From contig NZ_CP116808.1 of NCBI RefSeq assembly GCF_028464065.1, positions 1,071,886 to 1,135,885 on the forward strand: a stretch of DNA of 64,000 nt, written 5' to 3'. Made by a program: the position numbers and the translations under genes. Origin of the DNA: Saprospira sp. CCB-QB6 (GTDB lineage Bacteria; Bacteroidota; Bacteroidia; Chitinophagales; Saprospiraceae). The notes below the pieces were generated by a model. That model worked only from the letters and a program-made list of their open reading frames with translations, did no database searches and was not told the origin of the DNA. This document shows, in pieces, positions 1 through 64,000 of this stretch; the stretch's first letter is position 1, and each line of letters starts with the position of its first letter.

Positions 1-531
1 TGATTTATCATTACCAACTGCTAGTTTATAAAGATATTCAATCAACTTTTGGAATAGTATCATATATTCCCCCAATAATGCTGCATTCAGACTATTCGAA
101 TTAGTTGAATCAGAAAAGGCTAAATGAATAACTGTTGACTCACTCTCTATAGACTCCTTAATCAGCTGGCTACCTTCTACTACCCAAGACTCTTCTTCTA
201 TAAAAAAACCTTCATCAGGTAAATATGATTCAGGTATCATATCCCAGCCATGTCTAGTAGCTGAAAAATTATGTAGGTTTTCTTCTTCGCAAATTACATC
301 ATACCACTCTTTAACTTCAGGTTTCTCAAAAATAATTCTTAAATCAAGTTCTCCTTGTAATAATTTTATATAACGTTCATTAGAAATTTTAATCCCTAGA
401 TATTTTATCTCAGGAGATTCTTCTATGATCATGCATATATACTTACTTTGAAAAAGATCTTTAGCAGTAAAGACCTGTGGAACATCATAGTATACAAGCA
501 CATCTAATATTTTCAAATACAGCAAGCTCAT
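1..531 (-). CDS. Hypothetical acidic protein, 5'-partial at the window edge; its ATG (531-529) overlaps the TGA stop of the upstream ORF (ATGA overlap).
   Basis: Hand translation of the minus strand gives an uninterrupted frame from the window start to 531 (MSLLYLKILDVLVYYDVPQVF...IEEESWVVEGSQLIKESIESE...). The region is AT-rich. The next in-frame stop is at 547-549. Confidence 0.45.
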   Translation of the reverse strand, partial: MSLLYLKILDVLVYYDVPQVFTAKDLFQSKYICMIIEESPEIKYLGIKISNERYIKLLQGELDLRIIFEKPEVKEWYDVICEEENLHNFSATRHGWDMIPESYLPDEGFFIEEESWVVEGSQLIKESIESESTVIHLAFSDSTNSNSLNAALLGEYMILFQKLIEYLYKLAVGNDKS

Positions 532-926
532 AATACTTTTGAAGATTCAATGTTAAAAAGAGTACTCATCCACCATGAGTGATGTTCTTTATATCTTCCA
601 GTTTGTTTAATTAAACCATCTTTTGGAAAAAGTTCTACACTAAATACTACCTTTTTTTTATGTGCAGGTAGTTTTTTAAGATTATCACATCTGAATTTCT
701 CACTAAAAACTGATAAAGAACAAGCTATACACTCTGTTGTATTGAATTTCTTATTAGGAAACAATTTTCGATGCGAGAAAAAATCTTTTTCCACTATCGA
801 ACTAGAATGACCTAGTCTATAAAAAGTTTTTCCATTAACAGCATTAGCATCAGGGGGCGGGCAATCTTCAGGTAATTTTTCTTTGTAACTCATTATCAAT
901 GCATTTAATTTATCAGTTAATTCCAA
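528..926 (-). CDS. Hypothetical protein, 132 aa, basic and Cys-containing.
   Basis: ORF from the track in AT-rich DNA. No recognisable domain. Translationally coupled to the downstream ORF. Confidence 0.5.
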   Translation of the reverse strand: MELTDKLNALIMSYKEKLPEDCPPPDANAVNGKTFYRLGHSSSIVEKDFFSHRKLFPNKKFNTTECIACSLSVFSEKFRCDNLKKLPAHKKKVVFSVELFPKDGLIKQTGRYKEHHSWWMSTLFNIESSKVL

Positions 927-995
927 AAATTACAACTTAGGACAATTACAACCAAATTTTTTTTCAAAAAACGAGTCTCCACAAAAGGATCCTCC

Positions 996-1535
996 CTAAA
1001 ACCTTTTACTTCCCCCATAACAAAGGCAATCTTCATACTCTGGATAGTCTTTTAGCTTAGGGTGCTTAAACTCCCCCAACTTTTGTAGGCCAATTTTTTT
1101 CATGACTTGCTCGGACTTTTGGTTGTCTAGGGTGCAAACGGCAATCAGCTGCTCTATTTCTAGCTCCTCAAAGGCAAATTCCAGGCATTTTTTGGCCCCT
1201 TCTGTCGCAAAGCCCTGCCCCCAGGCCGCTTTTTTCAAGCGCCAACCAATATCTACCGCAGGTGTGTAGACGCTCTCATAATCCTGATAGGCTAAGCCGA
1301 TGAAGCCTATAAACTCTCCGCTCTCTAAAATGTCCGTGGCAAAATAACAGTAGCCATATTTCTCCTGATGCGCCTGTAGCCGCCGCAGAAAGGCCGCCGT
1401 TTCTTCTTCTGTTAGCGGACTGGGAAAATGTGCCATGACCTCTATATCGGCATTCATTTTTGCAAATTCAGGCAGATCGGCAGCGGTCCAAGCACGAAAG
1501 CCCAAGCGGGCAGAGCGAAAAAGATAGTTTTTCAT
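996..1535 (-). CDS. GNAT family N-acetyltransferase (RimJ/RimL-like).
   Basis: 179 aa with a GNAT-like core (IGFIGL...WGQGFATEG) and the typical length. Confidence 0.8.
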   Translation of the reverse strand: MKNYLFRSARLGFRAWTAADLPEFAKMNADIEVMAHFPSPLTEEETAAFLRRLQAHQEKYGYCYFATDILESGEFIGFIGLAYQDYESVYTPAVDIGWRLKKAAWGQGFATEGAKKCLEFAFEELEIEQLIAVCTLDNQKSEQVMKKIGLQKLGEFKHPKLKDYPEYEDCLCYGGSKRF

Positions 1536-1580
1536 TTTGATTGTTTTTATTGGTCCAAGATAGGGTTTAAAATTTTGTGT

Positions 1581-1905
1581 CTGCGCCTTTCTTGCGGCCT
1601 AGGGACATATATCTCCTCATCTATTATCTCTGCGCCTAGGGACAAGCCCCTAGGCTAGCTTTTTTAGACAGCCCTCTAAAGAGGGCCTTTGGATAAGGAC
1701 CTGCTCTGCAATAACCCCTTAGCTAAACTTAGGTAAGCTAGTTGACAGAGATCAAGGCCTTTAGGCGATTTAGCAGGCGGCGAAGCCGCCGCAGGCCTAG
1801 CGATGTGCAGCAGTGCGGCGCAGCCGCAGACCAAGGCCGTCAGGCCGCAGGGCCGAGCGAATAGCGAGCTGCGAAACGTAGCGCCCGCCGAAGGCGGGAG
1901 GCCCC
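1581..1905. repeat. Composite GC-rich intergenic repeat: a family B fragment (gcctagggacaagcccctaggc) plus a family A core.
   Basis: Segment 1631-1720 is nearly identical to 40108-40195. The GC-rich core recurs at about 20 loci. Confidence 0.8.
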
Positions 1906-5187: not shown

Positions 5188-5295
5188 AATGTCGCTTCTG
5201 TTCTGTATGCTTTGGCCTCAAGATAAGACCCGACTTATAATAATCAAAAGCCCAAAAAGGTTTTTAAGTCTTGTTTAAGCCTAAGATTGTGCATT

Positions 5296-5460
5296 TTTTG
5301 GGGCCTCCGCTGCGGCTTCGCCTTGCGGCGCTACGTTCCGCAGCTCGCTGCTCGCTCGGCCCTGCGGCGGCTTTGCCGCCTGGGTCTGGCCTGACGGCCA
5401 CTGCTGCACATCGCTAGGCCAAGGCGGCTGCGCCGCCTAAACGCAACCCTTTGGTCCCGC
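5296..5460. repeat. Family A GC-rich repeat in reverse orientation.
   Basis: ggggcctccgctgcggcttcgccttgcggcgctacg...ggccctgcggcggctttgccgcc core. Confidence 0.8.
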
Positions 5461-6080: not shown

Positions 6081-6195
6081 CCGAAGCGCAGAGCTTTCAT
6101 TTGGCCTAGCGATGCGGCGGGGTGGCCCGCAGGGCCGAGCGAGCAGCGAGCCCCAAAGCATAGCGCCGCAAGGCGAAGCCGCAGCGGAGGCCCCC
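6081..6195. repeat. Family A GC-rich repeat.
   Basis: ggcctagcgatgcggcggggtggcccgcagggccgagcgagcagcgagcc...gcaaggcgaagccgcagcggaggccc. Confidence 0.8.
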
Positions 6196-6354
6196 AAAAA
6201 TTAGTGCTGATATTGAAACTTAACATTTTCTTGAAACAGCATAAGCTATATTATAGCTAGGAAAAAGCGACCTTTGGCAGCAATTTAAGCCTTTAAGTTG
6301 GTTCTTCTTGGACCAAAAAAAGGATTTCATCGAATCAATTTACTTGCAGAACCT

Positions 6355-7842: not shown

Positions 7843-7871
7843 GCCTAAATCTAGTAGGAAAGATATCTCAA

Positions 7872-7900
7872 GGACTGTCGAAATCGGCAGTCCTTTTTTT
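7872..7900 (+). terminator. Rho-independent terminator after gap.
   Basis: ggactg-tcgaaatcgg-cagtcc hairpin followed by TTTTTTT. Confidence 0.6.
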
Positions 7901-8025
7901 GTGCTTTAGAGCAAACTAACGTTGTAAATACTTGTAAATACAAGAACACTAAGCTAACTTAGTCATACATAACAAAACAAGCCAGATAAATACTCCCCAA
8001 TTATTCTTCATCTTAGTCCCCCAAA

Positions 8026-8511
8026 ATGATGTATCCTTATATTTTCTCTTGTTTTATCTGCCTTTGGAGTTTTCCGCTTTGGGCACAGTTGCAGCCTTTG
8101 CCTGAAGAAGGAGGGCAATTAGTTTTAGCGCATGATAGTATTTTTTATTTGGCTCCCCAAGGAAGTTATTACTATAGATCGGGTCAATTTTTCCTTTCGA
8201 ATAGTTCGATAGATAAAGGGCTCCAGTTGGAACAGCTAGCTTGGGGTGTCCAAGAGCGGTACATTTTGGCTTTGAGCCAAAATTTTCGGGCTGGCTACTG
8301 GGCCAAGGATTTGGACCAAAGCGAGGCCCTGCTCGAACAAAAAAAAGCCGAAAGCTGGCAGAGCTTTCGGCTTTTACTTCCTGCTTATGAGGATGCTTAT
8401 ATCTATAGTATATTAGAAAGGGGTAATCAGCTATACCTTTGTATATATATAGATGGGCTGCATTATCTGCAACTTATTGAGGTAGGGCTGCAGCCTCTTT
8501 CTCTAGAATAG
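8026..8511 (+). CDS. Hypothetical secreted protein.
   Basis: Signal peptide (...FPLWAQ). 3' end converges on and overlaps the FMO gene by 38 nt. Confidence 0.45.
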   Translation: MMYPYIFSCFICLWSFPLWAQLQPLPEEGGQLVLAHDSIFYLAPQGSYYYRSGQFFLSNSSIDKGLQLEQLAWGVQERYILALSQNFRAGYWAKDLDQSEALLEQKKAESWQSFRLLLPAYEDAYIYSILERGNQLYLCIYIDGLHYLQLIEVGLQPLSLE

Positions 8512-11174: not shown

Positions 11175-11333
11175 AGAGGAGCGAAGCGACTGGCCCAGCG
11201 CTGCGGAGGGGTGGCCGTAGGCCAGACCGAGCCAGCAAGCTGGCGAAGGGCCGAGCGAATAGTGAGCCCCGCAGCATAGCGGCGGCCGCCCTAGCCGAAG
11301 GCTAGCCGGCCGCGGGCCCCAAGGCATAAAAAA
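11175..11333. repeat. Family A GC-rich repeat.
   Basis: Shares the gccagaccgagccagcaagctggcgaagggccgagcgaatag core with other loci. Confidence 0.8.
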
Positions 11334-12647: not shown

Positions 12648-13114
12648 TATTTCTCGCTAATTTAAAGTTGTTCAAAAAATATGCAAAGGGCCAAATTGAT
12701 CTTTTGGGCGGCCTTCGCTTCATAAATGCAGCAAAGATATAAATTTCTACAAAGGAAGTTAAACCCACCCCTATTTTGCTAGAAAAAAAGCTGAGAGACA
12801 AGCGCCAAGCTATAAGGCGTCAAAGATTGGCTGAATCCTACCCAACTAGCAGCTAGACCTACTCAGCTAGCAGCCAGCCCTAACTTTTGCCCTTTTTCAT
12901 TTTGTTACATTATTTTCATTTTTAACAATTGGGGTCCAAAATCCTGTTTCTGCAGCAAAAAGGGGAAAGACAAAATTTTAAACAGCTTCTACAACTAAAT
13001 GCCCCGAAAATCACTTCCCCTTGATGAAAATTGCATAGAAAACGGCTGTAATTATGAATACCACATACAATTTGTGGCTTAAGCTGTAAAACACTATCAT
13101 TAGTTTCTTTTTTG

Positions 13115-13440
13115 GGGGCTGCCCCTCGCCTGCGGCTCGGGTCGGGCTGTGTCAGGGCTCGCTATTCGCTCGGCCCTTCGCCAGCAAGCTGGCTCGGTCT
13201 GGCCTACGGCCACCCTTTTCCATCCCTCAGCCGATGCAGGCCCTAGCCTGCATAAAAGCGGCAGGCTATCGCCTATTTAATATAAAGCGGGCTTTAGCCC
13301 GCTTTGGATTGGACCAATTTTGCCCAGACAGCCCGAGGGATTCCGCAAGGAATCCCGTAGAGGGGTGGGTGGGCGGGTCATCAGTACGGATGACGAGCGA
13401 AGCGAGGAATACCGCTTTGGGCCAACCAAAAGCAGAAAAG
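13115..13440. repeat. Family A repeat, long form. Begins with the terminal motif TTGGGGGCTGCCCC.
   Basis: Homologous over about 250 bp to 29240-29470 (ttggggctgcccc...gtcgggtcgggctgtg...cccttttccatccctcagcc...gcgggctttagcccgc...attggacc). Confidence 0.8.
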
Positions 13441-13861: not shown

Positions 13862-14022
13862 CCTTGGCGACCTACAGGCGGCAAAGCCGCCGCAGGCTGA
13901 GGGGCTGTAGCAGGGCCGCCCTAGGCGGCAGACCAAAGCGCTGAAAGCGCTGCAGGGCCGAGCGATCAGCGAGCTGCGCAATGGCCCGACCCGACCGAAG
14001 GGAGGGGCAGCCCCCAATCATT
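13862..14022. repeat. Family A repeat in reverse orientation, ending with ...GGGGCAGCCCCCAA.
   Basis: With 13115-13440 it brackets msrB with outward-facing terminal motifs. Confidence 0.8.
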
Positions 14023-14502
14023 TTATAACTTAATTTCGGCTAACAACTCCCATTCATTGGGCCGAGGAGCCGTATGCACCAGCTGCAGGCGGTCAAAATG
14101 CAGAGGAATGCTTTGGTCCTTGGCCTCCTCCTTAAAAATGGGCAAGGCTCCATATAAAAAACTGAGTTGAGGGACAAAAGGGTGCAGCTCCAGATGTTCA
14201 AAAAGCGTTTGGGCCTCTGCTCGAAGCTGGTCAATTTTGGAATTTGCTTGTTTATTGAGGAATAGACAGCGATAATGTGCCTCTAGCTCGCCACAGGGAT
14301 GAAAATCTAGCGAAATGGGCAAAATAGCCTCGGCCCAAGCGGCTAATTTTGGAGCTAGCTGCTCGGCGGGCTCCGACAAGCCCGACAAAAGCGTCAGGTG
14401 GGGACAAAAGCGCGGAGAATCATCTAGGCTATATAGGCCCGTAATGAGTTGGGCCAGTTCCTGATAAGCCTGATGATTGGGGATTAACCAAAGAGAAAGC
14501 AT
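14023..14502 (-). CDS. Hypothetical protein, possible 2H phosphoesterase (LigT-like) fold.
   Basis: Two H-x-T/S-x motifs (CPHLTLL, LVHTAP) at an appropriate spacing. Weak evidence. Confidence 0.35.
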   Translation of the reverse strand: MLSLWLIPNHQAYQELAQLITGLYSLDDSPRFCPHLTLLSGLSEPAEQLAPKLAAWAEAILPISLDFHPCGELEAHYRCLFLNKQANSKIDQLRAEAQTLFEHLELHPFVPQLSFLYGALPIFKEEAKDQSIPLHFDRLQLVHTAPRPNEWELLAEIKL

Positions 14503-21352: not shown

Positions 21353-21394
21353 CCTTCCCAAGCATTATTTCTTTTTTCCCCTCTTGTTTTTATT

Positions 21395-21880
21395 TTGGGG
21401 CCCGCGGCCAAGCCAGGCAGAATGCCCGGCTTGGCCGCCGCTATGCTGCGCGGCTCGCTCATCGCTCGGCCCTTCGCTTTTTCGCTGCGCTCAAAAGCTC
21501 GGTCTGGCCTGCGGCCACCGCTGCGCAGCGCTGGGCCGCTCCACTTTTGTTTTCACTTAATTCTTTCTGCTTCGGCCTTTTGTCTGCCCCTTTTAAGCGG
21601 TAGGCCTCGCTTCGCTCGGCCTGCTTCAATATGTCCCCGCCCACCCACCCCTCTACAGGATTCCTTACGGAATCCCTCGGGCTGGCTGGCCACTTGCTAC
21701 AATTTTCCCCAGACCAATTAGGCGGCGAAGCCGCCTCTGGCCCCAAGGGCCAGAACGGCCTAGCGATGCGGCGGGGTGGCCCGAAGGGCCAGACCCAGGC
21801 GGCAAAGCCGCCGCAGGGCCGAGCAGAACTGCGAGCCCCAAAGCGTAGCGCCGCAAGGCGAAGCCGCAGCGGAGGCCCCT
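21395..21880. repeat. Two family A repeats in inverted arrangement (forward 21395-21720, reverse 21721-21880).
   Basis: ggggcccgcggcc...gctcggtctggcctgcggccaccgctgcgcagcgctgggcc, and then its reverse complement. Confidence 0.8.
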
Positions 21881-21930
21881 CATCCTCCCTCAATAAAATA
21901 GCCTAGAACTAAAAAGGACTATCCCAAGCA

Positions 21931-29201: not shown

Positions 29202-29239
29202 AGATGATTGATTTATTAGATACTTTTCTTTGCTAATGA

Positions 29240-35962: not shown

Positions 35963-35984
35963 CTAATAAATTTGACCTTAAGTG

Positions 35985-36172: not shown

Positions 36173-36179
36173 TATCCCC

Positions 36180-43000: not shown

Positions 43001-43061
43001 GGCTAAGGCGGGGCGATTATTTTTTTATTGATTTTTTGGGGCGTTACTCCTTACAGTCGTC

Positions 43062-43440
43062 GAACTGCGGCTTGTAGCCTTGTTGTCGTTCCGCAGCTCG
43101 CTATTACTTGCTTCGCTGCGTCGGCTCCCGTTGGTCGGGTCGCTCGGCCCTTCGCCAGCTAAGCTGGCTCGGTCTGGCCTGCGGGCCACTGCTGCACATC
43201 GCTAGGCCATGAAGGAGCGAAGCGACGCGGCTGAGGGATGGAGAGGGTGGCCCACAGGGCCAGACCGAGCAAAAATGCGCAGCATTTTTTGCGAAGGGCC
43301 GAGCGAGCAGCGAGCCCGGAACAGCCCGACCCGCCCGATAATTCATGAGGGTTTTAACCCTCATTTTGTAGAGCTTCGCAAAGCGATACCGCTTTGCGCT
43401 GGCGTTCAAGCTGGCGGAAGGGGCAGCCCCAAATCATTAT
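43062..43440. repeat. Family A repeats with a family C hairpin module, ending GGGGCAGCCCCAAA.
   Basis: Homologous to 37352-37565 in inverted orientation. Confidence 0.8.
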
Positions 43441-48004: not shown

Positions 48005-49699
48005 ATGCGCCTGCTCTATATCTTTGCCCTTAGCCTACTCCTCGCTTGCCAAAATGAAGCCCCCAAAGCCGAACTCCTCATTTTTAATGGCCCCATCTAT
48101 ACCCTAGATAATAGCCAAGCTCAGGTCGAAGCCCTAGCCGTAGCCAATGGAAAAATTATCGCCCTCGGAAATTGGACAGATATCCAAAAATACCAAAGCC
48201 CAAATACCGAACTGCTTGACCTCAATGGAAAAACCCTGATTCCCGCCTTTATTGAAAGCCATGCCCATATTCTGGGCCTCGGACAATTTAAACGAGAACT
48301 GGACCTTAGCCAAGTCAAAAGCTATGAGGAACTCATCAAAATAGTCCAAGAACAAGCCCAACATACTCCCAAAGGAGAATGGATCATCGGCCGTGCCTGG
48401 CACCAAAGTAAATGGGACTCCCTCCCCTTTTCTATCAAAGGCTACCAAACGCATGATGCCCTCAGCCAAGCTGTCCCCGATCATCCCGTTTTGCTGATGC
48501 ACGCTAGCGCCCACGCCCTAATGGCTAACGAAAAAGCTATGCAGTTAGCTGGCCTCAGCCCCGAAACCCAAATGAATGAAGAAGGCGAAATTATCCGCTT
48601 TCCCAATGGCCGCCCCACAGGCATTTTTACCGAAAATGCCATGTCTATTATTAAAGAGGCCCTTCCCCCAGCCGACGAAAATAGCCGCTACCAAGACCTA
48701 CAAGCCGGTATCCAAGAAGCCCTCAGCTATGGCATCGGCAGCCTACAAGATGCAGGCTCCGATTCTGCCGCTATCGCACTTTACCGAAAAGCCCTGGCCC
48801 AAAATGAACTCCCCCTCCGCCTTTGGGTCATGCTGGCCTATAATAATTATGCCGCCGATGTCCAAGGCCAAGAAGACCCTTTCCTGGAAAAATGGCTGCA
48901 AAAAGGCCCCGAAAAAGGCGACTTTCTCAGCATCGGAGGCATTAAACTCTATGCCGACGGCGCCCTAGGCTCTAGAGGCGCCTGGATGCTCGAAGAGTAT
49001 AGCGACCGCGCCGGCCATTTTGGCCACCCTACCCTCCCCCTAAAAACAATTGAAGAAATTGCCGAAAAAGCCCTGCTGGCCGACTTCCAACTCTGTACCC
49101 ACGCTATCGGCGATCGCGCCAACCAAGAACTACTCAATATCTATGAACGAGTCCTAAAAACACATCCCCAAGCCGCCAAAGACCACCGCTTCCGAATTGA
49201 ACACGCCCAACATATTGCCCCCCAAGATATTCCCCGATTTGCCAAACTAGACGTTATTGCCTCCATCCAAGGCATCCACTTTTCTTCCGACCGCCCCTGG
49301 GCCCAAAGCCGCCTCGGCCGCCTGCGCATCGCTATGGGCGCCTACCGCTGGAAACAATTGCTGGCCTCTGGCGCTAAACTAATTAACGGCACCGATGCCC
49401 CCGTGGAATCTATCAATCCCATCGCCTGCTTTTATAGCCTCGTCAGCCGCCAAGCCAATGATGGCCAAATCTATGAAGCCGACCAAAAACTTAGCCGCCT
49501 ACAAGCCCTAAAAGCCTATACCCTAGATGCCGCCTATGGCGCCTTTCAAGAAAAAGAAAAAGGCAGCCTAGAACTCGGAAAGTTTGCCGATTTTGCCATC
49601 CTCTCCCAAGATATTATGCAGGTCCCCCTCCAAGATATTCCACAAACTAAGGTCCTCCAAACTATTGTAAATGGCAAAACAGTCTATTTGAGGAAGTAG
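48005..49699 (+). CDS. Amidohydrolase family protein (Amidohydro_3-like), lipoprotein.
   Basis: FIESHAHILGLG metal-binding motif. Lipoprotein-type signal (LLLACQNE). 564 aa. Confidence 0.75.
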   Translation: MRLLYIFALSLLLACQNEAPKAELLIFNGPIYTLDNSQAQVEALAVANGKIIALGNWTDIQKYQSPNTELLDLNGKTLIPAFIESHAHILGLGQFKRELDLSQVKSYEELIKIVQEQAQHTPKGEWIIGRAWHQSKWDSLPFSIKGYQTHDALSQAVPDHPVLLMHASAHALMANEKAMQLAGLSPETQMNEEGEIIRFPNGRPTGIFTENAMSIIKEALPPADENSRYQDLQAGIQEALSYGIGSLQDAGSDSAAIALYRKALAQNELPLRLWVMLAYNNYAADVQGQEDPFLEKWLQKGPEKGDFLSIGGIKLYADGALGSRGAWMLEEYSDRAGHFGHPTLPLKTIEEIAEKALLADFQLCTHAIGDRANQELLNIYERVLKTHPQAAKDHRFRIEHAQHIAPQDIPRFAKLDVIASIQGIHFSSDRPWAQSRLGRLRIAMGAYRWKQLLASGAKLINGTDAPVESINPIACFYSLVSRQANDGQIYEADQKLSRLQALKAYTLDAAYGAFQEKEKGSLELGKFADFAILSQDIMQVPLQDIPQTKVLQTIVNGKTVYLRK

Positions 49700-49700
49700 T

Positions 49701-49832
49701 ATTTGGGGCCTCCGCTGCGGCTTCGCCTTGCGGCGCTACGTTCCGCAGCTCGCTATTCGCTCGGCCCTGCGCCGCCAAAGGCAGCTGGGTCTGGCCTGAC
49801 GGCCACTGCTGCACATCGCTAGGCCGCTCATC
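49701..49832. repeat. Family A GC-rich repeat.
   Basis: ggggcctccgctgcggcttcgccttgcggcgctacgttccgcagctcgctattcgctcggccc... Confidence 0.8.
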
Positions 49833-49959
49833 CATTTTTTTCTATTAACTTTTTTCTTCGGCAGTTTGGCTTTCGTTTTTTATTCCCCATAATTTTCATA
49901 GGAACCCAAGGGCCTTGGCTATAGAATCATCGTCATCCCCTCCTTCGAGGGGATTTTTT

Positions 49960-50060
49960 TTTGAACCTGTGGGTTGAAACCCACAGCAACAAAAGAGGCC
50001 ATACTAAACGCAATAAAAATGAGCCGATGGTTGAAACCATCGGCCCATATCATTTATAGC
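49960..50060. repeat. Family C two-hairpin module (gtgggttgaaacccac ... gccgatggttgaaaccatcggc).
   Basis: Homologous to 40510-40615. The second stem differs by compensatory changes. Confidence 0.8.
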
Positions 50061-50334
50061 AAACAAGGGCTTTAGCTCGCCAGTTTGCACAGCCCTACAA
50101 CCATGGGCTTCAGCCCATGGCCCTAAACAACTTCTTGCTGTTGAAGAACAAGCCGCTAAGCAATGATTGGCTAAATCGCCCCCAATTGTTAGGGAGTTGT
50201 TAAAAATAAAAATAATGTAACAAAATCAAAAAGGGCAAAAGTTATGTTCCAGACATAACTGGCTATGTCTGGGAGCTAACTAGCTAGGTAAAAAATATAA
50301 CCGGCTGATACTGTTCAGAATTTTGTGTATCCGA

Positions 50335-50440
50335 ATAAAATTTTGGCCTTTAAATTTTATGAGGGTTTTAACCCTCATTCATACATCATTGCGCAGCAAT
50401 ACCACATATGGCTGTAGGTTTTAACCTACAGTTATTATAA
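50335..50440. repeat. Family C two-hairpin module (gagggttttaaccctc ... gtaggttttaacctac), inverted copy of 40310-40390.
   Basis: Reverse complement matches 40310-40390 almost base for base. Confidence 0.85.
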
Positions 50441-50514
50441 AAGGCTAATCATCGCCTAGGGCCAAGGGCGCACACAAAATTTTAAATAGTCCCACCTACA
50501 AATAAAAAAGCCCA

Positions 50515-50635
50515 TCCATCCCAAGGGATTCCGTAAGGAATCCCGTAGAGGGGTGGGTGGGCGGGTTATATTGCGAATGAGGAGCGCAGCGACGAATACC
50601 GCTTTTTGGCCTCCTCAAGAGCAGGAAATTAGGCT
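50515..50635. repeat. Family A GC-rich repeat fragment.
   Basis: cccgtagaggggtgggtgggcggg...gagcgcagcgacgaataccgc, the same segment as at 13370-13420. Confidence 0.7.
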
Positions 50636-51810
50636 AATTTTTGGACGGCAGTACTTTCATCCCCATAGTTTTGGCCAGGAGCTACGGTGAGTAGATTAAC
50701 GCCAGGTTTTTTGCCAGGGGCAAAGCTACCCAACTCCTCTTCAAAGCCCAGGGCTTCGGCACCATTTAGCGTGGCCCATTGCAAGAGCGTCTCAAAAGGG
50801 ACATAAGATTGGTAGCGGCGGATAGTCTTGATTTCGTCTAGGATAGAAAGGGCCCAATTAGAGGTGAGGCTATCGGTACCTAGGCAAACTTTGGCGCCTT
50901 TTTTCAAAAACGCTTGATAATTGGGGAGGCGATTTTCGATATAGAGATTGGCATTGGGGCAACTGGCCCAATAGACTGCCTTGCCCCAGCTCTTGGCGAA
51001 AGCAATATCTTGTTCAGAAGTGAGGGTGTTATGAACAAAGAGCGTTTTTTGTTCTGGGTCCATTTGCGAGAGGGCGTAATGGATGGCTGTTCTTCCGCTG
51101 GGTTGGAACTGGTCCAAAGAGAAGCCAAATTGGCCATAAAAATCGACAAAGCCGCCTGTTCCCTTGAGGAAGAGTTCTTGTTCTGGAGGCGTCTCTTGGT
51201 TATGAATGCTTACCGTATGGGCTTCTCCTTGATTGGCGGCATTGATGCGTTCGAACAATTGGGGAGAAACGGAATAAGGTGCGTGTGGCACCATGACTTT
51301 TCTGCTGCCTTCCGCTAGGGGAAGTGCGTCATAGACGGCCTTGTATTTTTCAAATTCGGTTTCGGCATTGGCGGCTTGTAGGAAGTCGAAACATTCTACA
51401 AAGCTATAATAGCGCAGGCGGCCTTTGGCCTTTTGGGCAAAGGTATCGGGAACATTAGTAATATCGCCTACGGCCACAATACCATTAGCGATCATTTGGT
51501 CCTCGGCCCAAGCGATAGCATCGGCAATAATTTCTTCGGGGGCATTGCGTCTAGAAACCACCTGTTTAATAAAGTCGATTAGGCCAGTGCCTGTTTCCAC
51601 TTTTCCGAGCATATGAGAAAGCTCTAGGTGGCAGTGTGCATTGATAAAGCCGGGGACCAAAATCCCCTTATGGATTTCGATTTCTTCTTGGGGGTAATCT
51701 GTACGTTGGCCTATTTCTAGGATGCGGCCCTCTTCATCAAGGACCAAAACGCCCTCTTTGATGGGGGCATCGCTAATGGGATAGATATAATCGGCGCTTA
51801 TTTTTCTCAT
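50629..51810 (-). CDS. Amidohydrolase family protein (deaminase/chlorohydrolase-like subgroup).
   Basis: [15 protein letters not shown] metal-ligand motif. Start trimmed to the internal ATG ([11 protein letters not shown]) because the first 79 codons of the ORF-track model lie inside a GC-rich repeat. Confidence 0.7.
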
Positions 51811-51860
51811 GGTATATGTCTTTAATTTAGGGGCCAAAAATAGAAAAAACTGTTGATTTA

Positions 51861-52042
51861 TCTTTAGAAATCTCTGAGACAGGCGGCGAAGCCGCCGCAT
51901 AGGAGCGCAGCGACTGGCTGAGGGATGCGCAGCAGTGGCGCAGAGCGCCAGACCCAGCCGCCTAAGGCGGCGCAGGGCCGAGCGAACAGCGAGCTGCGAG
52001 ACAGCCCGACCCGCCCACAGGGCGGGGCAGCCCCAAAATAGC
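51861..52042. repeat. Family A repeat ending GGGGCAGCCCCAAAA.
   Basis: Located inside a minus-strand operon between mvaD and the amidohydrolase gene. Confidence 0.8.
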
Positions 52043-52083
52043 GGCATAAAAAAAGCCTCCTAGAGGAAGCTTTTAGTTGGTGG

Positions 52084-53127
52084 TTAGACCAGCGTTAATT
52101 TTTCGGGTCCACAGCCTAATTCGTCGGCTAAGTAGCCGCCCTTTTCGCAGAGGGGGAGTAATTCCTCTTCAAGGAAGGGTTGGACCTTTGGCAGGATCGA
52201 TTTGGGGTAGAGCAGGTGTAGATTGGGGCCTGCGTCTAGGGTAAAATAGAGGGGGAGTTTTGTTTGTTGGCGCCAGTCGCGAATCTTTTCGATCAGGGCG
52301 AGGCTATTCGGTTGCATCAGTAGGTAAGAAGGGCGAGAAGTCATCATGAGGGCGTGTAGCATCAGGGCTTCTTCCTCGGCAATTTGGCCGAAGGTTTCCC
52401 AATCGCCAGATTGGAGGGCGGGTAAAAGTTTGCCTAGATTTTCCTCGGCTAGTTGGTAGCGAAGGGGGGCGAAGGGGTTGCCTTCCATGAGTTTGTGACC
52501 AGCGGTACTAGAGACAGATTTCTCGGCACGGCTCACAAGTAGGATAGTATCTTGGACCGTCTTAAAATCATCGTGTAGGAAGTTGGCACAGGGGCTTGCC
52601 CAGAGGTTAGCGCTATCTTTTAGCTGGCTAGATTCGCCCCAAGAGGCAGCCATAGGGTAGAGGGATCGGCAGGCGGAGCCAGAGCCTAGGCGGGCAAAAT
52701 AGCTAGCCTTCTGCCAAAACTCGGCTTGATCGGATTGGGGACCAAGGTTTAGTTCGGCGGCCATATCGCAGAGGCAGAGGGCTAAGGCGCTCATGCTAGA
52801 AGCGGAGGAGGCAATGCCGGCAGAATGGGGAAAAGAGTTCTTAGAATCTAGTTCGAGGCTATATTCATCGAGAAAAGGGAGCTCATCGAGGATACTTTCT
52901 AGGAAACCCTGGATACGTTGGGCAAAAGCTGGTTTTTCTTGACCTTCAAACAAAAAGCGCAATTGGATACCGCCTTTTGTTTTGGGGCTATAGCGGAGGC
53001 TGGTTTGGCTATAGGCTTCAGAAAGTGTAAAGCTGAGGGAAGCGTTTTTGGGAAGTTGGCGACCATACTTCCCCCAATACTTAATGATGGCGATATTGGA
53101 GGGGCTTTTCCAGCAAATTTGATTCAT
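52084..53127 (-). CDS. mvaD: Diphosphomevalonate decarboxylase (GHMP kinase superfamily).
   Basis: N-terminal SNIAIIKYWGK motif characteristic of MVD. 347 aa. Confidence 0.8.
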   Translation of the reverse strand: MNQICWKSPSNIAIIKYWGKYGRQLPKNASLSFTLSEAYSQTSLRYSPKTKGGIQLRFLFEGQEKPAFAQRIQGFLESILDELPFLDEYSLELDSKNSFPHSAGIASSASSMSALALCLCDMAAELNLGPQSDQAEFWQKASYFARLGSGSACRSLYPMAASWGESSQLKDSANLWASPCANFLHDDFKTVQDTILLVSRAEKSVSSTAGHKLMEGNPFAPLRYQLAEENLGKLLPALQSGDWETFGQIAEEEALMLHALMMTSRPSYLLMQPNSLALIEKIRDWRQQTKLPLYFTLDAGPNLHLLYPKSILPKVQPFLEEELLPLCEKGGYLADELGCGPEKLTLV

Positions 53128-55747: not shown

Positions 55748-56084
55748 CCCCCATCTCCTCACTTATATCCTCAGCCTGCTCAGCCTATTTTATTATGCTT
55801 CTCTTGCCCGTAAACACAGCAAGAATACCTTGCTATGGGCGGCTTTTGGCTTTCTTTTTCAGACGGGCCTCTCTATCCTTTTCATCCTATTCAGTAAGGT
55901 ATTTTTTGGCCTATTCAAAATCCTTTCTTGGCCCATCAATGATTATTGGGCGATTGGCCTACTCCTTCTCCCCCTAATCGCCTGCGTCCTTAGCCTTAAG
56001 CTAACCCCTTCTTTTGTTGCTCCCCAAGCAAAAAGACCCGCTCCTTCCTCCTCCAATTCAGATATTCTAGATGCGGATATTTAG
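55734..56084 (+). CDS. Small membrane protein, paralog 4 of 5, with C-terminal SDILDADI.
   Basis: 116 aa. Overlaps paralog 3 by 14 nt. Confidence 0.55.
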   Translation: MNAISPHLLTYILSLLSLFYYASLARKHSKNTLLWAAFGFLFQTGLSILFILFSKVFFGLFKILSWPINDYWAIGLLLLPLIACVLSLKLTPSFVAPQAKRPAPSSSNSDILDADI

Positions 56085-56087
56085 GGG

Positions 56088-56262
56088 CCCGCGGCCGCCC
56101 TTTATAGGGGGCAGCCGCCGCTATGCTGCGCAGCTCGCTGTTCGCTCGGCCCTGCGCCGCCTTAGGCGGCTGGGTCTGGCGCTCTGCGCCACTGCTGCGC
56201 AGCGCTGGGCCATTTGGCCCAGCGGGCCAAGGGGGCTTCGCCCCCTACATCCCTAAACCTAT
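56088..56262. repeat. Family A repeat inserted between paralogs 4 and 5.
   Basis: ggggcccgcggccgccc...gctcgctgttcgctcggccctgcgccgcc...ctgcgcagcgctgggcc. Confidence 0.8.
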
Positions 56263-59071: not shown

Positions 59072-59139
59072 AAAATTGTTTCTAATTAGGCCTTCAAGAT
59101 AATAACTTCTACTTAATAGGCCAAGTTTTTTCTTTTTTT

Positions 59140-59292
59140 GGGGCTGCCCCGCCCTTCGGTCGGGTCGGGCTCTCCGCAGCTCGCAGGTCTGCTCGGCCCT
59201 GCGCGGGCTTTGCCCGCTGGGTCTGCCGCCTTCGGCGGCCCTGCTCCCATCCCTCAGCCTGCGGCCCTTCGGGCCTGCAAAACGCAGTTGGA
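59140..59292. repeat. Family A repeat starting TTGGGGCTGCCCC.
   Basis: Located within a minus-strand operon between djlA and bactofilin. Confidence 0.8.
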
Positions 59293-59293
59293 C

Positions 59294-60049
59294 CTATTTC
59301 AAGCCTCGCTTTTCACAGATCGTATCATAAGCCTCTTGCAAACGCTTAAACTTAGACTCCCCCACTTTCTGAAACGCTTCCCCCAAACTCGCCAAACTAT
59401 CTGGATGATATTTCTTGACCATCTTCCGATAAGCCGCCTTTAACTGAGCATCTGAAGCCGATGGCGGCAACTCTAAAATCTTATAATGACTATCCATCTC
59501 ATCATAAAACATCGCTTTGATTGAGACAAAGTCACTATGTGGCAAATCCAACTCTAAACTAATCCGCTTAATAGTATCTACCTCCACCTGATCGATACTA
59601 TAATCTGCATTGGCAATACCAAAAAGGAAATAAAGCATCTGCAGGCGGGTTTCATAATTGCTACTCAAATAAATTTGTCGACAAATTTTAGAGAGCTCCC
59701 AATCTTGCTCCAAAGCAGCACTAAGGATTCCCATATACTCCTGCAAGTTATCTTGCCCAAACTGCTCTACCAAAAACTTCTGAATATAACTCAACTCCAA
59801 ATCTTCTACCTCTCCATCGGACTTAACAACAGCAGCAGCCAAAATTAGGGAACTGAGGATAAAGTTCGTACTATCATTCGGTTGAGGTAATTGTTTCTTG
59901 CGTCTTTTTGGCGCCCCCCCTCCTTTTTGGAGAAACATATCTATAAAAAAGCCAATTCCAAGGCCCAATAAAATACCTATTGGAAAATAAAGCAATCCGC
60001 CTAACAGCAGCCCCAAAAGCTTCCCAATATGTTGTTTCAGTAAATTCAT
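59294..60049 (-). CDS. djlA: DjlA-like membrane co-chaperone (N-terminal TM helix, TerB-like middle domain, C-terminal J domain).
   Basis: C-terminal J domain (YKILELPPSASDAQLKAAYRKMVKKYHPD) with a Gly/Leu-rich N-terminal TM. Confidence 0.6.
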   Translation of the reverse strand: MNLLKQHIGKLLGLLLGGLLYFPIGILLGLGIGFFIDMFLQKGGGAPKRRKKQLPQPNDSTNFILSSLILAAAVVKSDGEVEDLELSYIQKFLVEQFGQDNLQEYMGILSAALEQDWELSKICRQIYLSSNYETRLQMLYFLFGIANADYSIDQVEVDTIKRISLELDLPHSDFVSIKAMFYDEMDSHYKILELPPSASDAQLKAAYRKMVKKYHPDSLASLGEAFQKVGESKFKRLQEAYDTICEKRGLK

Positions 60050-61088: not shown

Positions 61089-61127
61089 AGTTCTGACTTA
61101 ATTAAACGCGTGATGACCAAAGAAAAG

Positions 61128-61268
61128 GGGGCGCAAATGGCCCAGCGCTGCGCAGCGGTGGCCGCAGGCCAGACCCAGCGGGCAAAGCCCGCGCAGGGCC
61201 GAGCAGACCTGCGAGCCGCGAAGCATAGCGGCGGCCAAGCTAGCCTTTGGCTAGCTGGCCGCGGGCCC
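61128..61268. repeat. Family A GC-rich repeat.
   Basis: gcgctgcgcagcggtggccgcaggccagacccagcgggcaaagcccgcgcagggccgagcagacc. Confidence 0.8.
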
Positions 61269-61546
61269 CTAAAGAACAAAATAAGGAGCTGCTTTAAGCC
61301 TTTGGAAACAGAAAAATAACAAAGATAAAGGAGGAGCAGCTAAAAAATCAGTTATTTTACTTTTTAGGGAATCGTTTCGTTCCCGAACGCATTAAAAAAC
61401 GCCTAAAAGGGGCAAATTTATTAGTCTGCTGCTGCCAAAAGGTCATTTTTAAATGAGTTCCTCGTATTTTCAGCCTCAACTCCTAATTTAACTGAAGAAC
61501 TTACTGGGCAGTGCGGCCAGAGGTTTAATTTAATCTAAGATATCTT

Positions 61547-63553
61547 ATGCCAAAATTATTGAAACTTACCATGATGGTCCTATTTCTTTTGCCGCTTAGT
61601 TTGGGGGCTCAAGATACTGATGGGCTATACAATGTAAACATGAAATTTTATCATTTGGACCTTGATATAGACATTGACAATCCTAAAATCAAGGGCAAGG
61701 TCTATATGGAATTTGTAGCGGTTAAAGACCAGGTAGAAACGCTTTATTTGGACCTTGGCGAGGGGATGGAAATAACAAAAATCGATGGTGCGGCCTCTTT
61801 TGAACGAGAAGGGGAGGAAGTCTTGGTTAAGCTATCGAGCCGTCCGTTGCGCAAAGAAGAAAGAGGTAAAATCACGGTGCATTATGAGGGTGTTCCAGAA
61901 AATGAGCAGGTTAATGTCGATGGAGAAACCGTAACCAAAGGGTTACTAGTCAAAAACCGTGGAAAGGATAAATTTCAGAGTCGCTTAGTTGCCTTAGCGG
62001 CTTATCCTCAGGCGGGTTATCGTTGGTTTCCCTGCCGCAGAGGTATTGGGGACAAGGTAGATTCTGTTTATGTAGATGTGAGCATCCCCGTTCGTTTTAG
62101 TACGGCTATGGTACAAGAAAAAGAGCGAAAAATTCCCTATACAGCCATATCTAATGGTGTTTTGGAAGGGACAGAAATTATCGAAGATGGCAAAAAGCGC
62201 AAATTTAAATGGCGTCACCGTCATCGTATTGCGCCCCACCACTTGACCATTGCTATTTCTAATTTTGCCAAAATGGAAGTGGAGTACAAAGCCAAAGGCT
62301 ATAGCTTCCCGATCAACTTTTATATCTTTCCAGAGCATTTGGAAGAAGCCAATGCAACGATCAATCGCTCTAAGGAAATCATGGCTTGTTTGAGCCGCAC
62401 TTTTGGCCCCTACCCCTATAAAGATGAAGGCTTTAGCGTCATTGAATTGGGCTTGCCTTTAGGTCTAGATGGTATGCCCACCCAAACAGCAGTTTTGGTA
62501 GAAGACCTCAAGAGCTTTCATATGTACCAAGTGGTGCACCAAGCAGCCAATATGTGGTTTGGCAACCATATTTCGCCAGAAGCTTGGCAGGATGCCTGGA
62601 TCACGGAAGCCCTAGCCACCTATGCCGAAGCCACCTGGCAAGAGTATAAGCGTGGACTAAACGTTTACCAAATTATTTTGGACCAAAAGGAATACTACGA
62701 AGGCGGAAAACTCTATTTGGATAATATCAATGAGTACTCTCAAGAACGCCTCTCTAAAAAGGGCATGTATGTAATTCACATGCTTCGCGGCATTATGGGC
62801 GACGAATATTTTTACGAAACCCTCAAGGGAATTACCGAACTCAAAAGAGGCAAAAGCACCTATTTGAGTACCGAGCGCTTTAGAGAAATTTGCGAATATT
62901 ACGCTAGTGAAAATGAGCCCAAAGACTTCAAATACTTCTTTGATCAATGGGTATTTGGCGAATATTACCCCACCTATAAAGTAGAGTATGAAAAAAGCCG
63001 CAACGGCATCAATCTACGCATCCTACAAGAAAAAGTAGAAGGCCAAGAACAATTCTTTGAAATGCCCGCCCGCCTTCGCTTTACCCTAGAAGATGGCAGC
63101 ACAGTAGAAAAGGTCGTGCAACTCAAGGCCCAAGCCGATCAAAGTATAGAAGTCGAGCTAGAGCAAAACTTTAATAAACTCGAATTCGATCCCTTCAACT
63201 GGATTTTTAAAGACCTACAATATACCCGAGAGATTCTCTCTAGCCGCAGCCCCATCGAAAACATGAGCATTACGACTAGCCAAGGCCGTCGAAAAATTGC
63301 CCTTAGCTTCGATAGCCCCAAAAAACAAAATATCGAAATCCAACTCATCCAAAAAGCCAATGGAGTCGATATCCTAGAAGATAAGATACTTCAAAGCCAA
63401 GAGCTGAAAAAAATCAAGGGCCAAAAAGAACTGAGCTTCAAATTGCCCGTTCCGCCCAAAAGCCGAGGCGTTTTCGAACTCAAAATTATCGGAAAATCAG
63501 ATGTCTTTTCTAAGGTCATCCGCGTCACTCAGCTAGAAGAACGCTTTAAATAA
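61547..63553 (+). CDS. Secreted M1-peptidase-family homologue with a degenerate zinc site.
   Basis: Region HQAANMWFGNH...WITEALATYAE aligns to the M1 HEXXH-x18-E motif (HELAHQWFGN...WLNEGFATY). The catalytic Glu and second His are replaced (HQAAN). Confidence 0.55.
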   Translation: MPKLLKLTMMVLFLLPLSLGAQDTDGLYNVNMKFYHLDLDIDIDNPKIKGKVYMEFVAVKDQVETLYLDLGEGMEITKIDGAASFEREGEEVLVKLSSRPLRKEERGKITVHYEGVPENEQVNVDGETVTKGLLVKNRGKDKFQSRLVALAAYPQAGYRWFPCRRGIGDKVDSVYVDVSIPVRFSTAMVQEKERKIPYTAISNGVLEGTEIIEDGKKRKFKWRHRHRIAPHHLTIAISNFAKMEVEYKAKGYSFPINFYIFPEHLEEANATINRSKEIMACLSRTFGPYPYKDEGFSVIELGLPLGLDGMPTQTAVLVEDLKSFHMYQVVHQAANMWFGNHISPEAWQDAWITEALATYAEATWQEYKRGLNVYQIILDQKEYYEGGKLYLDNINEYSQERLSKKGMYVIHMLRGIMGDEYFYETLKGITELKRGKSTYLSTERFREICEYYASENEPKDFKYFFDQWVFGEYYPTYKVEYEKSRNGINLRILQEKVEGQEQFFEMPARLRFTLEDGSTVEKVVQLKAQADQSIEVELEQNFNKLEFDPFNWIFKDLQYTREILSSRSPIENMSITTSQGRRKIALSFDSPKKQNIEIQLIQKANGVDILEDKILQSQELKKIKGQKELSFKLPVPPKSRGVFELKIIGKSDVFSKVIRVTQLEERFK

Positions 63554-63607
63554 AAAAGCACTTTTGCAATACATTCATAAGGCTAGTCCATTTTTGGGCT
63601 AGCCTTT

Positions 63608-63742
63608 TTTTGGGGCCTGCCGCCTTCGGCGGCCGGGCCCCTACAAGGCTCGCAGGCCTGCTCGGCCCTGCGCGGGCTTCGCCCGCTGGGTCTGGCCTGC
63701 GGCCACCTTTTTGGGCCCCTAGGCCTGCGGCCCTTCGGGCCT
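63608..63742. repeat. Family A GC-rich repeat.
   Basis: gggcctgccgccttcggcggcc...ctcggccctgcgcgggcttcgcccgctgggtctggcctgcggccacc. Confidence 0.8.
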
Positions 63743-63868
63743 GTAGTGTCCTGAAATTCATATTCAGAATAATTTCAAATCAGAACTTAAAATAAGAAAA
63801 AGCACAATTCAACTAATAAAATTTTAAATTAGAGGGCAAACCAATTCTTCATTACAACCTTACAATGT

Positions 63869-64000
63869 ATGCGTATACTTTATGCTTTTGCCGCTGCCTT
63901 GCTGCTCTCTAGTTTTGGGCTTCAGGCCCAAACAGGAGCAGGAGACTGGCTAGAACTCAAGTCAGGCAGAGAATTTATTGCTGCTGATCTCAGTAGTTTT
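63869..64000 (+). CDS. Secreted hypothetical protein, 3'-partial at the window end.
   Basis: Hand translation gives MRILYAFAAALLLSSFGLQAQTGAGDWLELKSG..., a signal peptide with the AQ cleavage motif. Confidence 0.4.
   Translation, partial: MRILYAFAAALLLSSFGLQAQTGAGDWLELKSGREFIAADLSSF

Follow-up and report, generated by a model that had tools for sequence, protein, structure and literature searches.

Family A, a GC-Rich Intergenic Repeat of Saprospira with a Covarying Branched Fold and Alternating Orientation

Introduction

Repetitive extragenic palindromic sequences (REPs) are single short imperfect palindromes with a GT(A/G)G head; they retain their palindromes via complementary mutations and are held in alternating orientation within the clusters called bacterial interspersed mosaic elements (BIMEs) (PMC2817692). 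Enzymes of the IS200/IS605 type need no inverted ends and make no duplications (PMC2817692). Here, we describe family A, a GC-rich structured repeat located between the genes of a 64-kb stretch of Saprospira DNA (Bacteroidota, Saprospirales), which is referred to below as the window. With the REPs, BIMEs, and REP doublets forming hairpins (REPINs) of E. coli, Pseudomonas, and Stenotrophomonas and their REP-associated tyrosine transposases (RAYT, IS200-like Y1), family A has the following in common: extragenic location, hundreds to thousands of copies on both strands, a lack of long inverted ends and target duplications, a structure kept by complementary changes, a patchy occurrence among related genera, inverted doublets within a gap, and mosaics with other small hairpins. 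The likeness extends to the high copy number (~3.3 per 10 kb), to changes on both sides in 23–28 of 32 base pairs, and to the alternation of units (19/20 within a gap, 95/113 across genes).

Family A differs from REPs in its five helices and three-way junction and in having an invariant unpaired core together with a conserved G·U pair. It differs from BIMEs in that its alternation spans kilobases across genes and is not limited to clusters. GTAG was found on the reverse strand of one subtype only (CGCTACG), with CGCTATG in the others. In RAYT systems, a rayt gene (PF01797) is flanked by two inverted repeat copies; in the ~1 Mb of loci covered here, no RAYT gene was found beside family A. Family A thus behaves like REP/BIME sequences in its lifestyle, although it fails their structural definition.

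Several other classes of small repeats are comparable in part. BOX, RUP, ERIC/IRU, Correia/NEMIS, and Rickettsia RPE sequences, known from Gram-positive and other bacteria, are highly structured, modular, non-coding intergenic elements of ~100–200 nt, often co-transcribed with neighbouring genes; their terminal inverted repeats fold into long imperfect hairpins, and the Correia elements make a TA duplication. The ends of family A, in contrast, pair over 5 bp only and enclose a branched body with covarying stems and a conserved loop, and its G+C content is 25 points above the genome average. Palindrome-associated transposable elements (PATEs) of the IS200/IS605 group with omega-RNA scaffolds also lack inverted ends and duplications and have a one-sided conserved flank and a structured RNA-like body, with a strand bias following the direction of replication. 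Family A has no such bias and no linked tnpA/tnpB gene in the sampled loci; its copies are far more numerous and occupy fixed orthologous positions. Integron attC sites lie between genes and conserve a single-strand structure over sequence, with variable stems and terminal structures; they carry the R''/R' core sites RYYYAAC/GTTRRRY and form same-orientation cassette arrays beside an integrase. Family A is devoid of R''/R' sites and flanks housekeeping genes genome-wide.

Our best reading is that family A, found across the order Saprospirales, would be a repeat of REP/BIME/REPIN-like lifestyle with a far more elaborate anatomy. It appears to be described in neither Rfam nor the searchable literature. 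A search of the whole window against Rfam at gathering thresholds returned three tRNAs only; at E values up to 10, neither of the two copies in region 49600–52100 was matched. The literature search, in which the core sequence was also used as text, found no description of these repeats.

Detection of Family A in the Window

The G+C content of the window is 45.6%. Its DNA is only 82–93% identical to that of S. grandis DSM 2844, Lewin, and WHT and thus represents a fourth Saprospira lineage; the encoded proteins include BshA, alternative GlmU, SppA, RelA/SpoT, and MetK. The initial annotation had reported GC-rich structured repeats with 14 example intervals, within which repeat finding revealed many overlapping direct and inverted families. 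Alignment of 18 copies on the motif GCTCGC-N5–8-CTCGGCCC reduced them to a single family with a common module order. An nhmmer profile identified 21 family-A copies in the window, and the covariance model R1, built from alignment A1 of 60 copies from several genera and run over the whole window with filters off, found the same 21 (63.6–129.8 bits; next best match 12.9 bits). The reported family is real: each of the 14 intervals holds at least one copy. Seven copies came in addition (1778–1917, 13879–14027, 37416–37567, 40728–40910, 43026–43224, 43213–43373, and the second copy within 21395–21880). The copies are listed below with their position, strand, context, and R1 match; the helices P1–P5 are described in the section on the fold.

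1790–1901, minus strand; copy with the GGGG...GGCC core; R1 1778–1917, 114.5 bits
5300–5420, plus; in the divergent gap between bshA and the 5628 open reading frame (ORF); R1 5288–5436, 122.5 bits; orthologues in Lewin, DSM 2844, and WHT
6099–6190, minus; short form without P4a and P5, antisense to both neighbours, orthologues being long forms; R1 6087–6206, 93.7 bits
11188–11316, minus; 3' of metK; R1 11176–11332, 107.5 bits; orthologues in three genomes
13114–13232, plus; followed by satellite hairpins and a family-C module to ~13440; R1 13102–13248, 111.6 bits
13891–14011, minus; T-run adjoins the stop codon of ORF 14023–14502; R1 13879–14027, 88.7 bits
21397–21537, plus; left half of a tail-to-tail pair; R1 21385–21553, 110 bits
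21753–21875, minus; right half of this pair, 3' of a BioF/Kbl-family acyltransferase gene; R1 21741–21891, 107.2 bits
29243–29360, plus; 5' end 34 nt away from the start codon of sppA, antisense to both neighbours; R1 29231–29376, 103.8 bits; orthologue in locus L048
30410–30531, minus; R1 30398–30547, 114.2 bits; orthologue in locus L048
36017–36144, minus; R1 36005–36160, 99.3 bits
37359–37551, plus; nested insert of ~75 nt (GGGTTAAAACCC hairpin family) in P2; R1 37416–37567, 87.1 bits, the 5' end at 37359 lying outside this match and being set from repeat finding and sequence inspection
40740–40894, minus; 35-nt insert in the core loop; R1 40728–40910, 110.5 bits
43038–43208, plus; 35-nt core insert as in 40740–40894, aberrant 5' module; R1 43026–43224, 75.3 bits
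43225–43430, minus; nested P2 insert as in 37359–37551; R1 43213–43373, 71.6 bits; inverted repeat
49705–49825, plus; top score in the window; R1 49693–49841, 129.8 bits
51912–52030, minus; between mvaD and an amidohydrolase gene; R1 51900–52046, 102 bits; Pfam; orthologues in loci L130 and L132
56084–56211, plus; R1 56072–56227, 119.3 bits; orthologues found
59140–59259, plus; between bactofilin and TerB/DnaJ (DjlA-like) genes, named from the orthologous locus L130 (Pfam) and not from window ORFs; R1 59128–59275, 63.6 bits; orthologues found
61135–61265, minus; R1 61123–61281, 112.6 bits; orthologues found
63612–63725, plus; 3' of a peptidase M1 gene; R1 63600–63741, 89.4 bits; orthologues found

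The G+C content of the copies was 70.7% (0.59–0.75 as a fraction per interval) vs. 45.4% in coding DNA. Family A makes up 18% of the intergenic DNA and 4% of the window. Crude gene calls delimit 35 gaps of ≥100 nt, 18 of which carry a copy; the claim that nearly every intergenic gap does so was overstated. The location of copies within operons was borne out between mvaD and the amidohydrolase gene (51900–52046) and between the bactofilin and TerB/DnaJ genes (59128–59275).

Spurious ORFs over the elements, also predicted initially, were found, e.g., at 21395–21721, 21459–21893, 29241–29804, 35897–36235, and 59138–59443; a further ORF created or extended by a repeat is 30343–30741. In the 472-aa ORF 50629–52047, the amidohydrolase Pfam match begins at residue 129, and the upstream extension runs through copy 51912–52030. 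These repeats thus call for caution in annotation: they give rise to false ORFs and lengthen genuine ones, and in strain DSM 2844, at least one assembly gap lies within a copy. There, an N run cuts the copy at L035 2311–2410, which indicates that the repeats interfere with assembly.

Distribution in Genomes and Relatives

The 19-base core of the family was used as a search pattern against a database of 596 Gb, and the matches listed comprised at least 120 stretches. The copies proved to be interspersed genome-wide; confinement to this region, which would have refuted the initial annotation, was not borne out: the pattern matched in at least 49 separate 8-kb blocks of the main DSM 2844 scaffold (56 kb–4.39 Mb) and in at least one block of its 56-kb scaffold. 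R1 detected 144 copies in these fifty blocks (49 on the main scaffold and one on the 56-kb scaffold) and 105 copies in stretches of other genera. Among the matches listed were also Phaeodactylibacter luteus, two metagenome-assembled genomes (MAGs) of Lewinellaceae, and many Saprospiraceae MAGs. The matches in one MAG of Saccharibacteria and one of Acidobacterium were not recognised as copies by R1 and are compatible with chance, ~4 chance matches being estimated in 596 Gb.

The density was ~3.3 copies per 10 kb, and 2.8–3.8 per 10 kb in the loci fetched via a protein and not via the repeat. By extrapolation, a 4.3-Mb genome would contain ~1,400 copies in total. If this holds, ~4–5% of the genome of a free-living bacterium consists of one repeat with a complex fold proven by covariation. 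The first 50 kb of the 55-kb plasmid of strain Lewin contained 21 copies, a density as on the chromosome; no annotated feature lies beneath the best match on this plasmid. Two Saprospira plasmids were the only ones with the core pattern in the plasmid collection, and no match was found in viral contigs. Family-A copies were absent from 42 kb around metK in two Aureispira genomes and from a 14-kb contig of a related MAG.

A MAG labelled Flavobacteriales with a G+C content of 39% contained one good copy (L020 6456–6563, 63.5 bits); either mis-binning or spread outside Saprospirales would account for it. The Lewin plasmid (NC_016936.1, 55 kb) encodes pur genes, guaA, guaB, genes of pyrimidine metabolism and of phenylacetate degradation (paa), ParA, and replication-initiation genes; it resembles a chromid because the biosynthesis genes sit beside the ParA and replication-initiation genes.

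Ends and Secondary Structure

Family-A copies are 105–190 nt long and have sharp ends, a T-run being followed by GGGG ... GGCC. At the 5' border, TTT|GGGG, T accounts for 91–94% at positions −3 to −1 and falls to background by about −10; the uninterrupted T-run is 3–9 nt long. The 3' border, ...GGCC|, is also sharp: there is no consensus beyond it, and C is avoided at +1. Unrelated small GC hairpins or terminators of the A-run/hairpin/T-run form often follow on the 3' side.

The initial annotation had suggested a covariance analysis for conserved RNA structure, and such an analysis yielded a branched fold supported by covariation. P1 (GGCCU/AGGCC) is the closing helix of 5 bp, P2 is a variable hairpin, and the long, interrupted helix P3 leads to a three-way junction, which holds the invariant single-stranded core CUCGCUAUUCGCUC. 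Also enclosed by P3 are P4 (GGCC/GGGU), which may bear a variable hairpin (P4a), and hairpin P5. The G·U pair in P4 is near-invariant (139 of 142 S. grandis copies), and the core and this pair are invariant across three families of Saprospirales. The sequence modules initially quoted as shared by the copies do belong to the family: gcggcttcgccttgcggcgc represents one form of hairpin P2, ggccgagcgaatagcgagc corresponds to the invariant core in reverse complement, and ggtctggcctgcggccac is the 3' strand of P4 with hairpin P5, while the end motifs TTTGGGGCTGCCCC and cccttttccatccctcagcc are one of at least three 5'-end variants and one 3'-end variant, respectively.

The helices were supported by mutual information, RNAalifold, and pair counting; RNAalifold independently yielded P1, the base of P2, and P3. 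In the copies from other genera, 92.1% of cells were paired vs. 69% after shuffling and 35–51% with the partner slid, and 28 of 32 pairs had changes on both sides. The corresponding values for the 144 S. grandis copies were 94.0% paired vs. 75% shuffled and 31–53% slid. P1 itself covaries in sequence (GGCCU/AGGCC, GGCUG/CAGCC, GGCCC/GGGCC). Single-sequence folding energies hardly surpassed those of shuffles, with z values of −0.1 to −3.1 on either strand; single-sequence folding is uninformative for such GC-rich DNA, and covariation is therefore required.

As to the strand, G·U exceeded A·C with ratios of 98:50 and 175:74, favouring the TTTGGGG strand. Hairpin triloops on the same strand were C-TNC-G in 179 cases and C-GNA-G in 6 (118 vs. 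3 in other genera); the complementary strand therefore carries the C-GNA-G form, a loop class of very stable DNA mini-hairpins. With more than 1,000 paralogous copies per genome in several genera, the family offers a data set for the study of structure kept under recombination shuffling.

Orientation of the Copies

Copies were initially reported in both orientations and often as inverted pairs. This was confirmed, the pairs within one gap being tail-to-tail in 19 of 20 cases. Beyond such pairs, the strand alternates from copy to copy over kilobases and across genes, an unexpected new observation. With duplicated orthologous loci left out of the totals, 126 adjacent pairs were alternating and 18 same-strand (p = 1.9e-21); when only pairs with a spacing of ≥700 nt were counted, the numbers were 95 and 18 (p = 4e-14). 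Alternating neighbours amounted to 17/20 in the window, 81/94 in the DSM 2844 blocks, 7/7 in Phaeodactylibacter, and 15/18 in MAG co367_12. On the Lewin plasmid, the + − + − order continues through the pur and paa operons, all of which are on the plus strand, with alternation in 19 of the 20 neighbouring pairs. In the window, one same-strand pair is explained by the loss of a copy at site J, described below. A scan with R1 with filters off found no hidden degenerate copies between same-strand neighbours.

Median intervals were 1,159 nt for tail-to-tail and 2,319 nt for head-to-head neighbours (p = 0.0004), with no head-to-head interval under 1 kb. Strands were balanced with respect to the replichore (72 plus vs. 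69 minus copies) in nearly every 8-kb block of the 4.4-Mb scaffold. Single copies in tandem gaps of Saprospira had no transcription preference (30 sense vs. 32 antisense); in other genera, the 5' end faced gene 3' ends in 57 cases vs. gene starts in 30.

Neighbours as inverted duplicates of each other, or as selected complementary partners, were considered and rejected: the identity of neighbours (0.711) equals that of random pairs (0.708). Random single insertions cannot give the alternation either, because insertion into an alternating chain always makes one same-strand adjacency. The alternation is thus a testable puzzle concerning the coexistence of dense repeats with genome stability.

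Nested inverted pairs with rare shared variants were observed at 37–43 kb of the window. The outer pair (37334–37468/43321–43455) shares the 75-nt P2 insert and the inner pair (40767–40864/43087–43184) the 35-nt core-loop insert; together, they enclose genes for Wzi-like and beta-barrel outer membrane proteins, tRNA-Pro, dnaJ, and grpE. These pairs could be an inversion substrate or a trace of local conversion.

Conservation of Sites and Replacement of Copies

Orthologous DNA was obtained via MetK and a GT39-like protein. All 12 window sites lying in the overlaps are occupied at the same position in every Saprospira genome covering them, and recent transposition is not supported for this reason. 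Orthologous copies often differ by whole modules, namely P2, P4a, P5, inner P3, or the core-loop variant, and one Lewin orthologue is chimeric, joining a 5' half of type 1 to a 3' half of type 2. In the orthologue comparison, 60 double changes keep a pair and one breaks it, and 42 single changes make or break a pair.

Between DSM 2844 and WHT (~93% identical overall), the elements were 92–97% identical at three sites and 60–86% at three others. The flanks of these six sites were 85–98% identical, except for the right flank of site A (48%, with an indel); at the three diverged sites, that flank aside, they were mostly 92–98%. Unreplaced copies are conserved as well as their flanks or better. 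We read this bimodal identity at fixed sites as a sign of recurrent conversion or replacement by other copies, the recent events being replacements and not insertions. Such replacement makes local hairpins appear to covary more than they do; P1 and P3, the long-range helices, nonetheless stay paired.

Site J carries a family-A copy and a Phenol_MetA_deg gene in three S. grandis genomes, and both are gone from the window:

L121 14421–15768 (also L122 and L125) vs. window 7843–8242; site J locus with the Phenol_MetA_deg gene and the copy

In another locus, a 502-aa Fic-domain gene is located between a family-A copy and metK in DSM 2844 and WHT (L122, L125 8327–9835); it is present neither in the window (12648–13102) nor in Lewin.

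Features of Transposons, Promoters, and Terminators

Neither single copies, at fixed or free offsets, nor tail-to-tail pairs had more flank matches than permuted controls; target-site duplications, for which the initial annotation had suggested looking, were thus found for neither. No long terminal inverted repeats were present, and the ends pair only as the 5-bp covarying P1. Membership among DDE-type miniature inverted-repeat transposable elements (MITEs) was rejected for the lack of terminal inverted repeats and of target-site duplication. In ~1 Mb of sampled loci, 784 ORFs compared all-against-all by BLAST and 128 neighbours scanned with Pfam yielded housekeeping families only and no ORF family recurring beside the copies. 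The flanks, with T at 91–94% at −3 to −1 and no 3' consensus, are compatible with IS200/IS605 PATEs, although not specific for them. Integron attC identity was rejected: R''/R' motifs are not in the consensus, the orientation alternates, and the neighbours are housekeeping genes.

The Bacteroidetes −7 box is TAnnTTTG. The TTTG junction of the copies is unlike it, and no conserved motif was found in the 40 nt upstream; the promoter reading was rejected. The rule that 5' ends follow terminators was also dropped, being based on few examples in the window: a stringent terminator lies within 70 nt upstream of only 15 of 149 copies, and downstream of 12 of 149. The copies are not intrinsic terminators themselves, since the T-run lies 5' of the structure; the A-run/hairpin/T-run terminators are separate features beside some copies.

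Possible Origin and Role

The explanation that we favour, tentatively and a little short of even confidence, is that family A is an old structured repeat of the REP/BIME kind, now largely fixed. It would have spread through the intergenic DNA of the Saprospira ancestor after the split from Aureispira, likely via a single-stranded intermediate whose fold was recognised by a trans-acting HUH/Y1 (RAYT-like) enzyme, a route that would fit the lack of long inverted ends and target duplications. The copies would no longer be mobile in the sampled lineages and would be retained at fixed sites, where recombination (gene conversion) with one another may have homogenised and reshuffled them. Alternation might have arisen from selection against same-strand neighbours during saturating colonisation, such neighbours being deletion-prone direct repeats around needed genes; a tendency of the T-run end to favour T/A-rich DNA close to genes would contribute. 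Copies between same-strand genes of an operon would be expected to form very stable structures in the mRNA, and a host use, e.g., as an exonuclease barrier or insulator, is possible on this model. The discovery of a partner enzyme or of a binding protein could establish a new system that mobilises or reads folded single strands in Bacteroidota.

Several observations weigh against this explanation. No mobilising enzyme was identified among the neighbours scanned in the ~1 Mb of sampled loci, and the tested sites include no empty site and no insertion polymorphism. The case for past mobility is consequently limited to the scattered and patchy occurrence, the copies on the plasmid, and the nested inserts. 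The branched fold, the invariant unpaired core, and the conserved G·U pair exceed the needs of any known REP and look like a functional RNA or a specific protein-binding site. The evidence on the strand conflicts, since G·U pairs favour the TTTGGGG strand and the C-GNA-G triloops lie on its complement. Random pairs of copies are only ~71% identical, so that recombination between neighbours may be too rare to enforce ~90% alternation. The retention of 12 of 12 sites and the identity of unreplaced copies at or above that of their flanks suit host selection at least as well.

Host selection is the basis of another explanation, which we regard as possible but rather unlikely: a structural element between genes, either a folded RNA or a protein-bound DNA site, with the alternating polarity as part of its function, for instance in an orientation-dependent block of a translocating machine. 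It might protect transcript ends, insulate cistrons, or organise the chromosome. A selected structural or regulatory role had also been suggested initially; the long occupancy of fixed sites and the strongly non-random alternation of strands would fit it. Such a role is further favoured by the persistence of all 12 sites across 82–93% DNA identity, unreplaced copies being as conserved as their flanks or more; by the core and G·U pair, invariant in three families of Saprospirales; by the equal density on a plasmid with pur and paa operons; by an alternation not attainable by random single insertions; and by the 5' ends facing gene 3' ends rather than starts (57 vs. 30) in other genera. However, the tandem gaps of Saprospira give no transcription preference (30 vs. 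32), only about half of the gaps are occupied, and nested inserts, chimeras, and a short form without two helices are tolerated. Neighbours are no more complementary than random pairs, which speaks against selected long-range pairing, and the family was not found in the sampled Aureispira loci and is thus not a core requirement. We consider it improbable that family A is, in particular, a new class of host-kept structured element and not a decayed transposon, alternating because it is direction-dependent. If this were true, the copies would represent a branched RNA or single-stranded DNA module with an invariant core, maintained over long periods at unchanging intergenic positions, e.g., a polar barrier to a machine translocating along DNA or RNA, or an RNA–protein or catalytic module processing polycistronic transcripts.

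The initial annotation proposed a non-autonomous mobile element, active or recently active. The copies are indeed interspersed, structured, and non-coding, lack coding capacity of their own, and occur on both chromosome and plasmid; activity or recent mobility is unsupported, given the occupation of all 12 comparable sites elsewhere, the absence of target-site duplications, a terminal helix of only 5 covarying base pairs, and no recurrent transposase or reverse transcriptase near the copies in the sampled loci. A non-autonomous derivative of IS200/IS605 type (PATE), with the fold doubling as an omega-RNA-like scaffold for a TnpB/IscB-type nuclease encoded elsewhere, seems very unlikely to us. 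The absence of long inverted ends and target duplication, the T-rich flank conserved on a single side, which would be expected of insertion 3' of a short target motif, the sharp opposite end without flank consensus, and a fold that is strand-specific, strongly structured, and of roughly the expected size speak for it. Yet the strands are not biased by replichore and are balanced in nearly every 8-kb block, no TnpA/TnpB gene lies near the copies in ~1 Mb of loci, and the 2.5 kb searched against Rfam at E values up to 10 gave no match. Moreover, the hairpin stems vary freely, in contrast to the defined hairpins read by known TnpA enzymes, and no PATE is known to resemble the family in its extrapolated 1,400 copies at fixed conserved sites. 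A classical MITE, i.e., a cut-and-paste derivative of a DDE insertion sequence that is still active, is largely refuted and is the least credible: in spite of the small size, the many intergenic copies, their presence on a plasmid, and the nested inserts, terminal pairing is limited to a helix of 5 bp that covaries in sequence and is not conserved, no target-site duplication was seen at any offset, the 12 sites show no insertion polymorphism, and no related transposase is found nearby in the sampled loci. It is hardly more probable that the copies are multiplied independent small-RNA genes or intrinsic terminators. The defined 5' GGGG and 3' GGCC ends with a closing helix do recall a stable RNA, and some copies stand directly after gene ends or beside terminator hairpins; against this are the lack of a promoter-like motif in the 40 nt upstream, a flank consensus that does not match the −7 box, a T-run ahead of the structure such that neither strand is a hairpin plus U-run, and the scarcity of stringent terminators (15/149 within 70 nt upstream, 12/149 downstream).

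Other Repeats of the Window

A tandem array with a 41-nt unit (9.5 copies, 96% match) was found at 25682–26070, with weaker copies to ~25600–26150. It is located in the divergent gap upstream of relA/spoT and is non-coding because its period is not a multiple of three.

A second interspersed family comprises perfect palindromes of 20–30 nt with the constant centre GGTT-N-AAACC, located at the following positions:

37425–37444, palindrome
40307–40326, palindrome
40358–40377, palindrome
40524–40543, palindrome
40575–40604, palindrome
40664–40683, palindrome
40719–40738, palindrome
43345–43364, palindrome
49967–49986, palindrome
50023–50044, palindrome
50359–50378, palindrome
50412–50431, palindrome

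Their stems are variable and compensated (CTGTAGG/CCTACAG, CTGTGGG/CCCACAG, ATGAGGG/CCCTCAT). Several bear a GT(A/G)G head, as in true REPs (PMC2817692). Judging from these sequence features, the palindromes may be the RAYT-type REPs of this genome. One unit is nested in P2 of two family-A copies.

A third GC-rich repeat of ~100 nt, GGGATTCCGYAAGGAATCCC-GTAGAGGGGTGGGTGGGCGGG...GAGCGAAGCGAGGAATACCGCTT, occurs beside family-A copies:

13337–13440, third GC-rich repeat
21590–21692, reverse strand, third GC-rich repeat
50525–50650, third GC-rich repeat

Longer, unique-looking repeats with 92–94% identity were observed at 1661–1722/40147–40208 and, in inverted orientation, at 40272–40421/50315–50466. 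The large gaps at 40.0–40.9 kb and 49.7–51.0 kb are mosaics of several repeat families.

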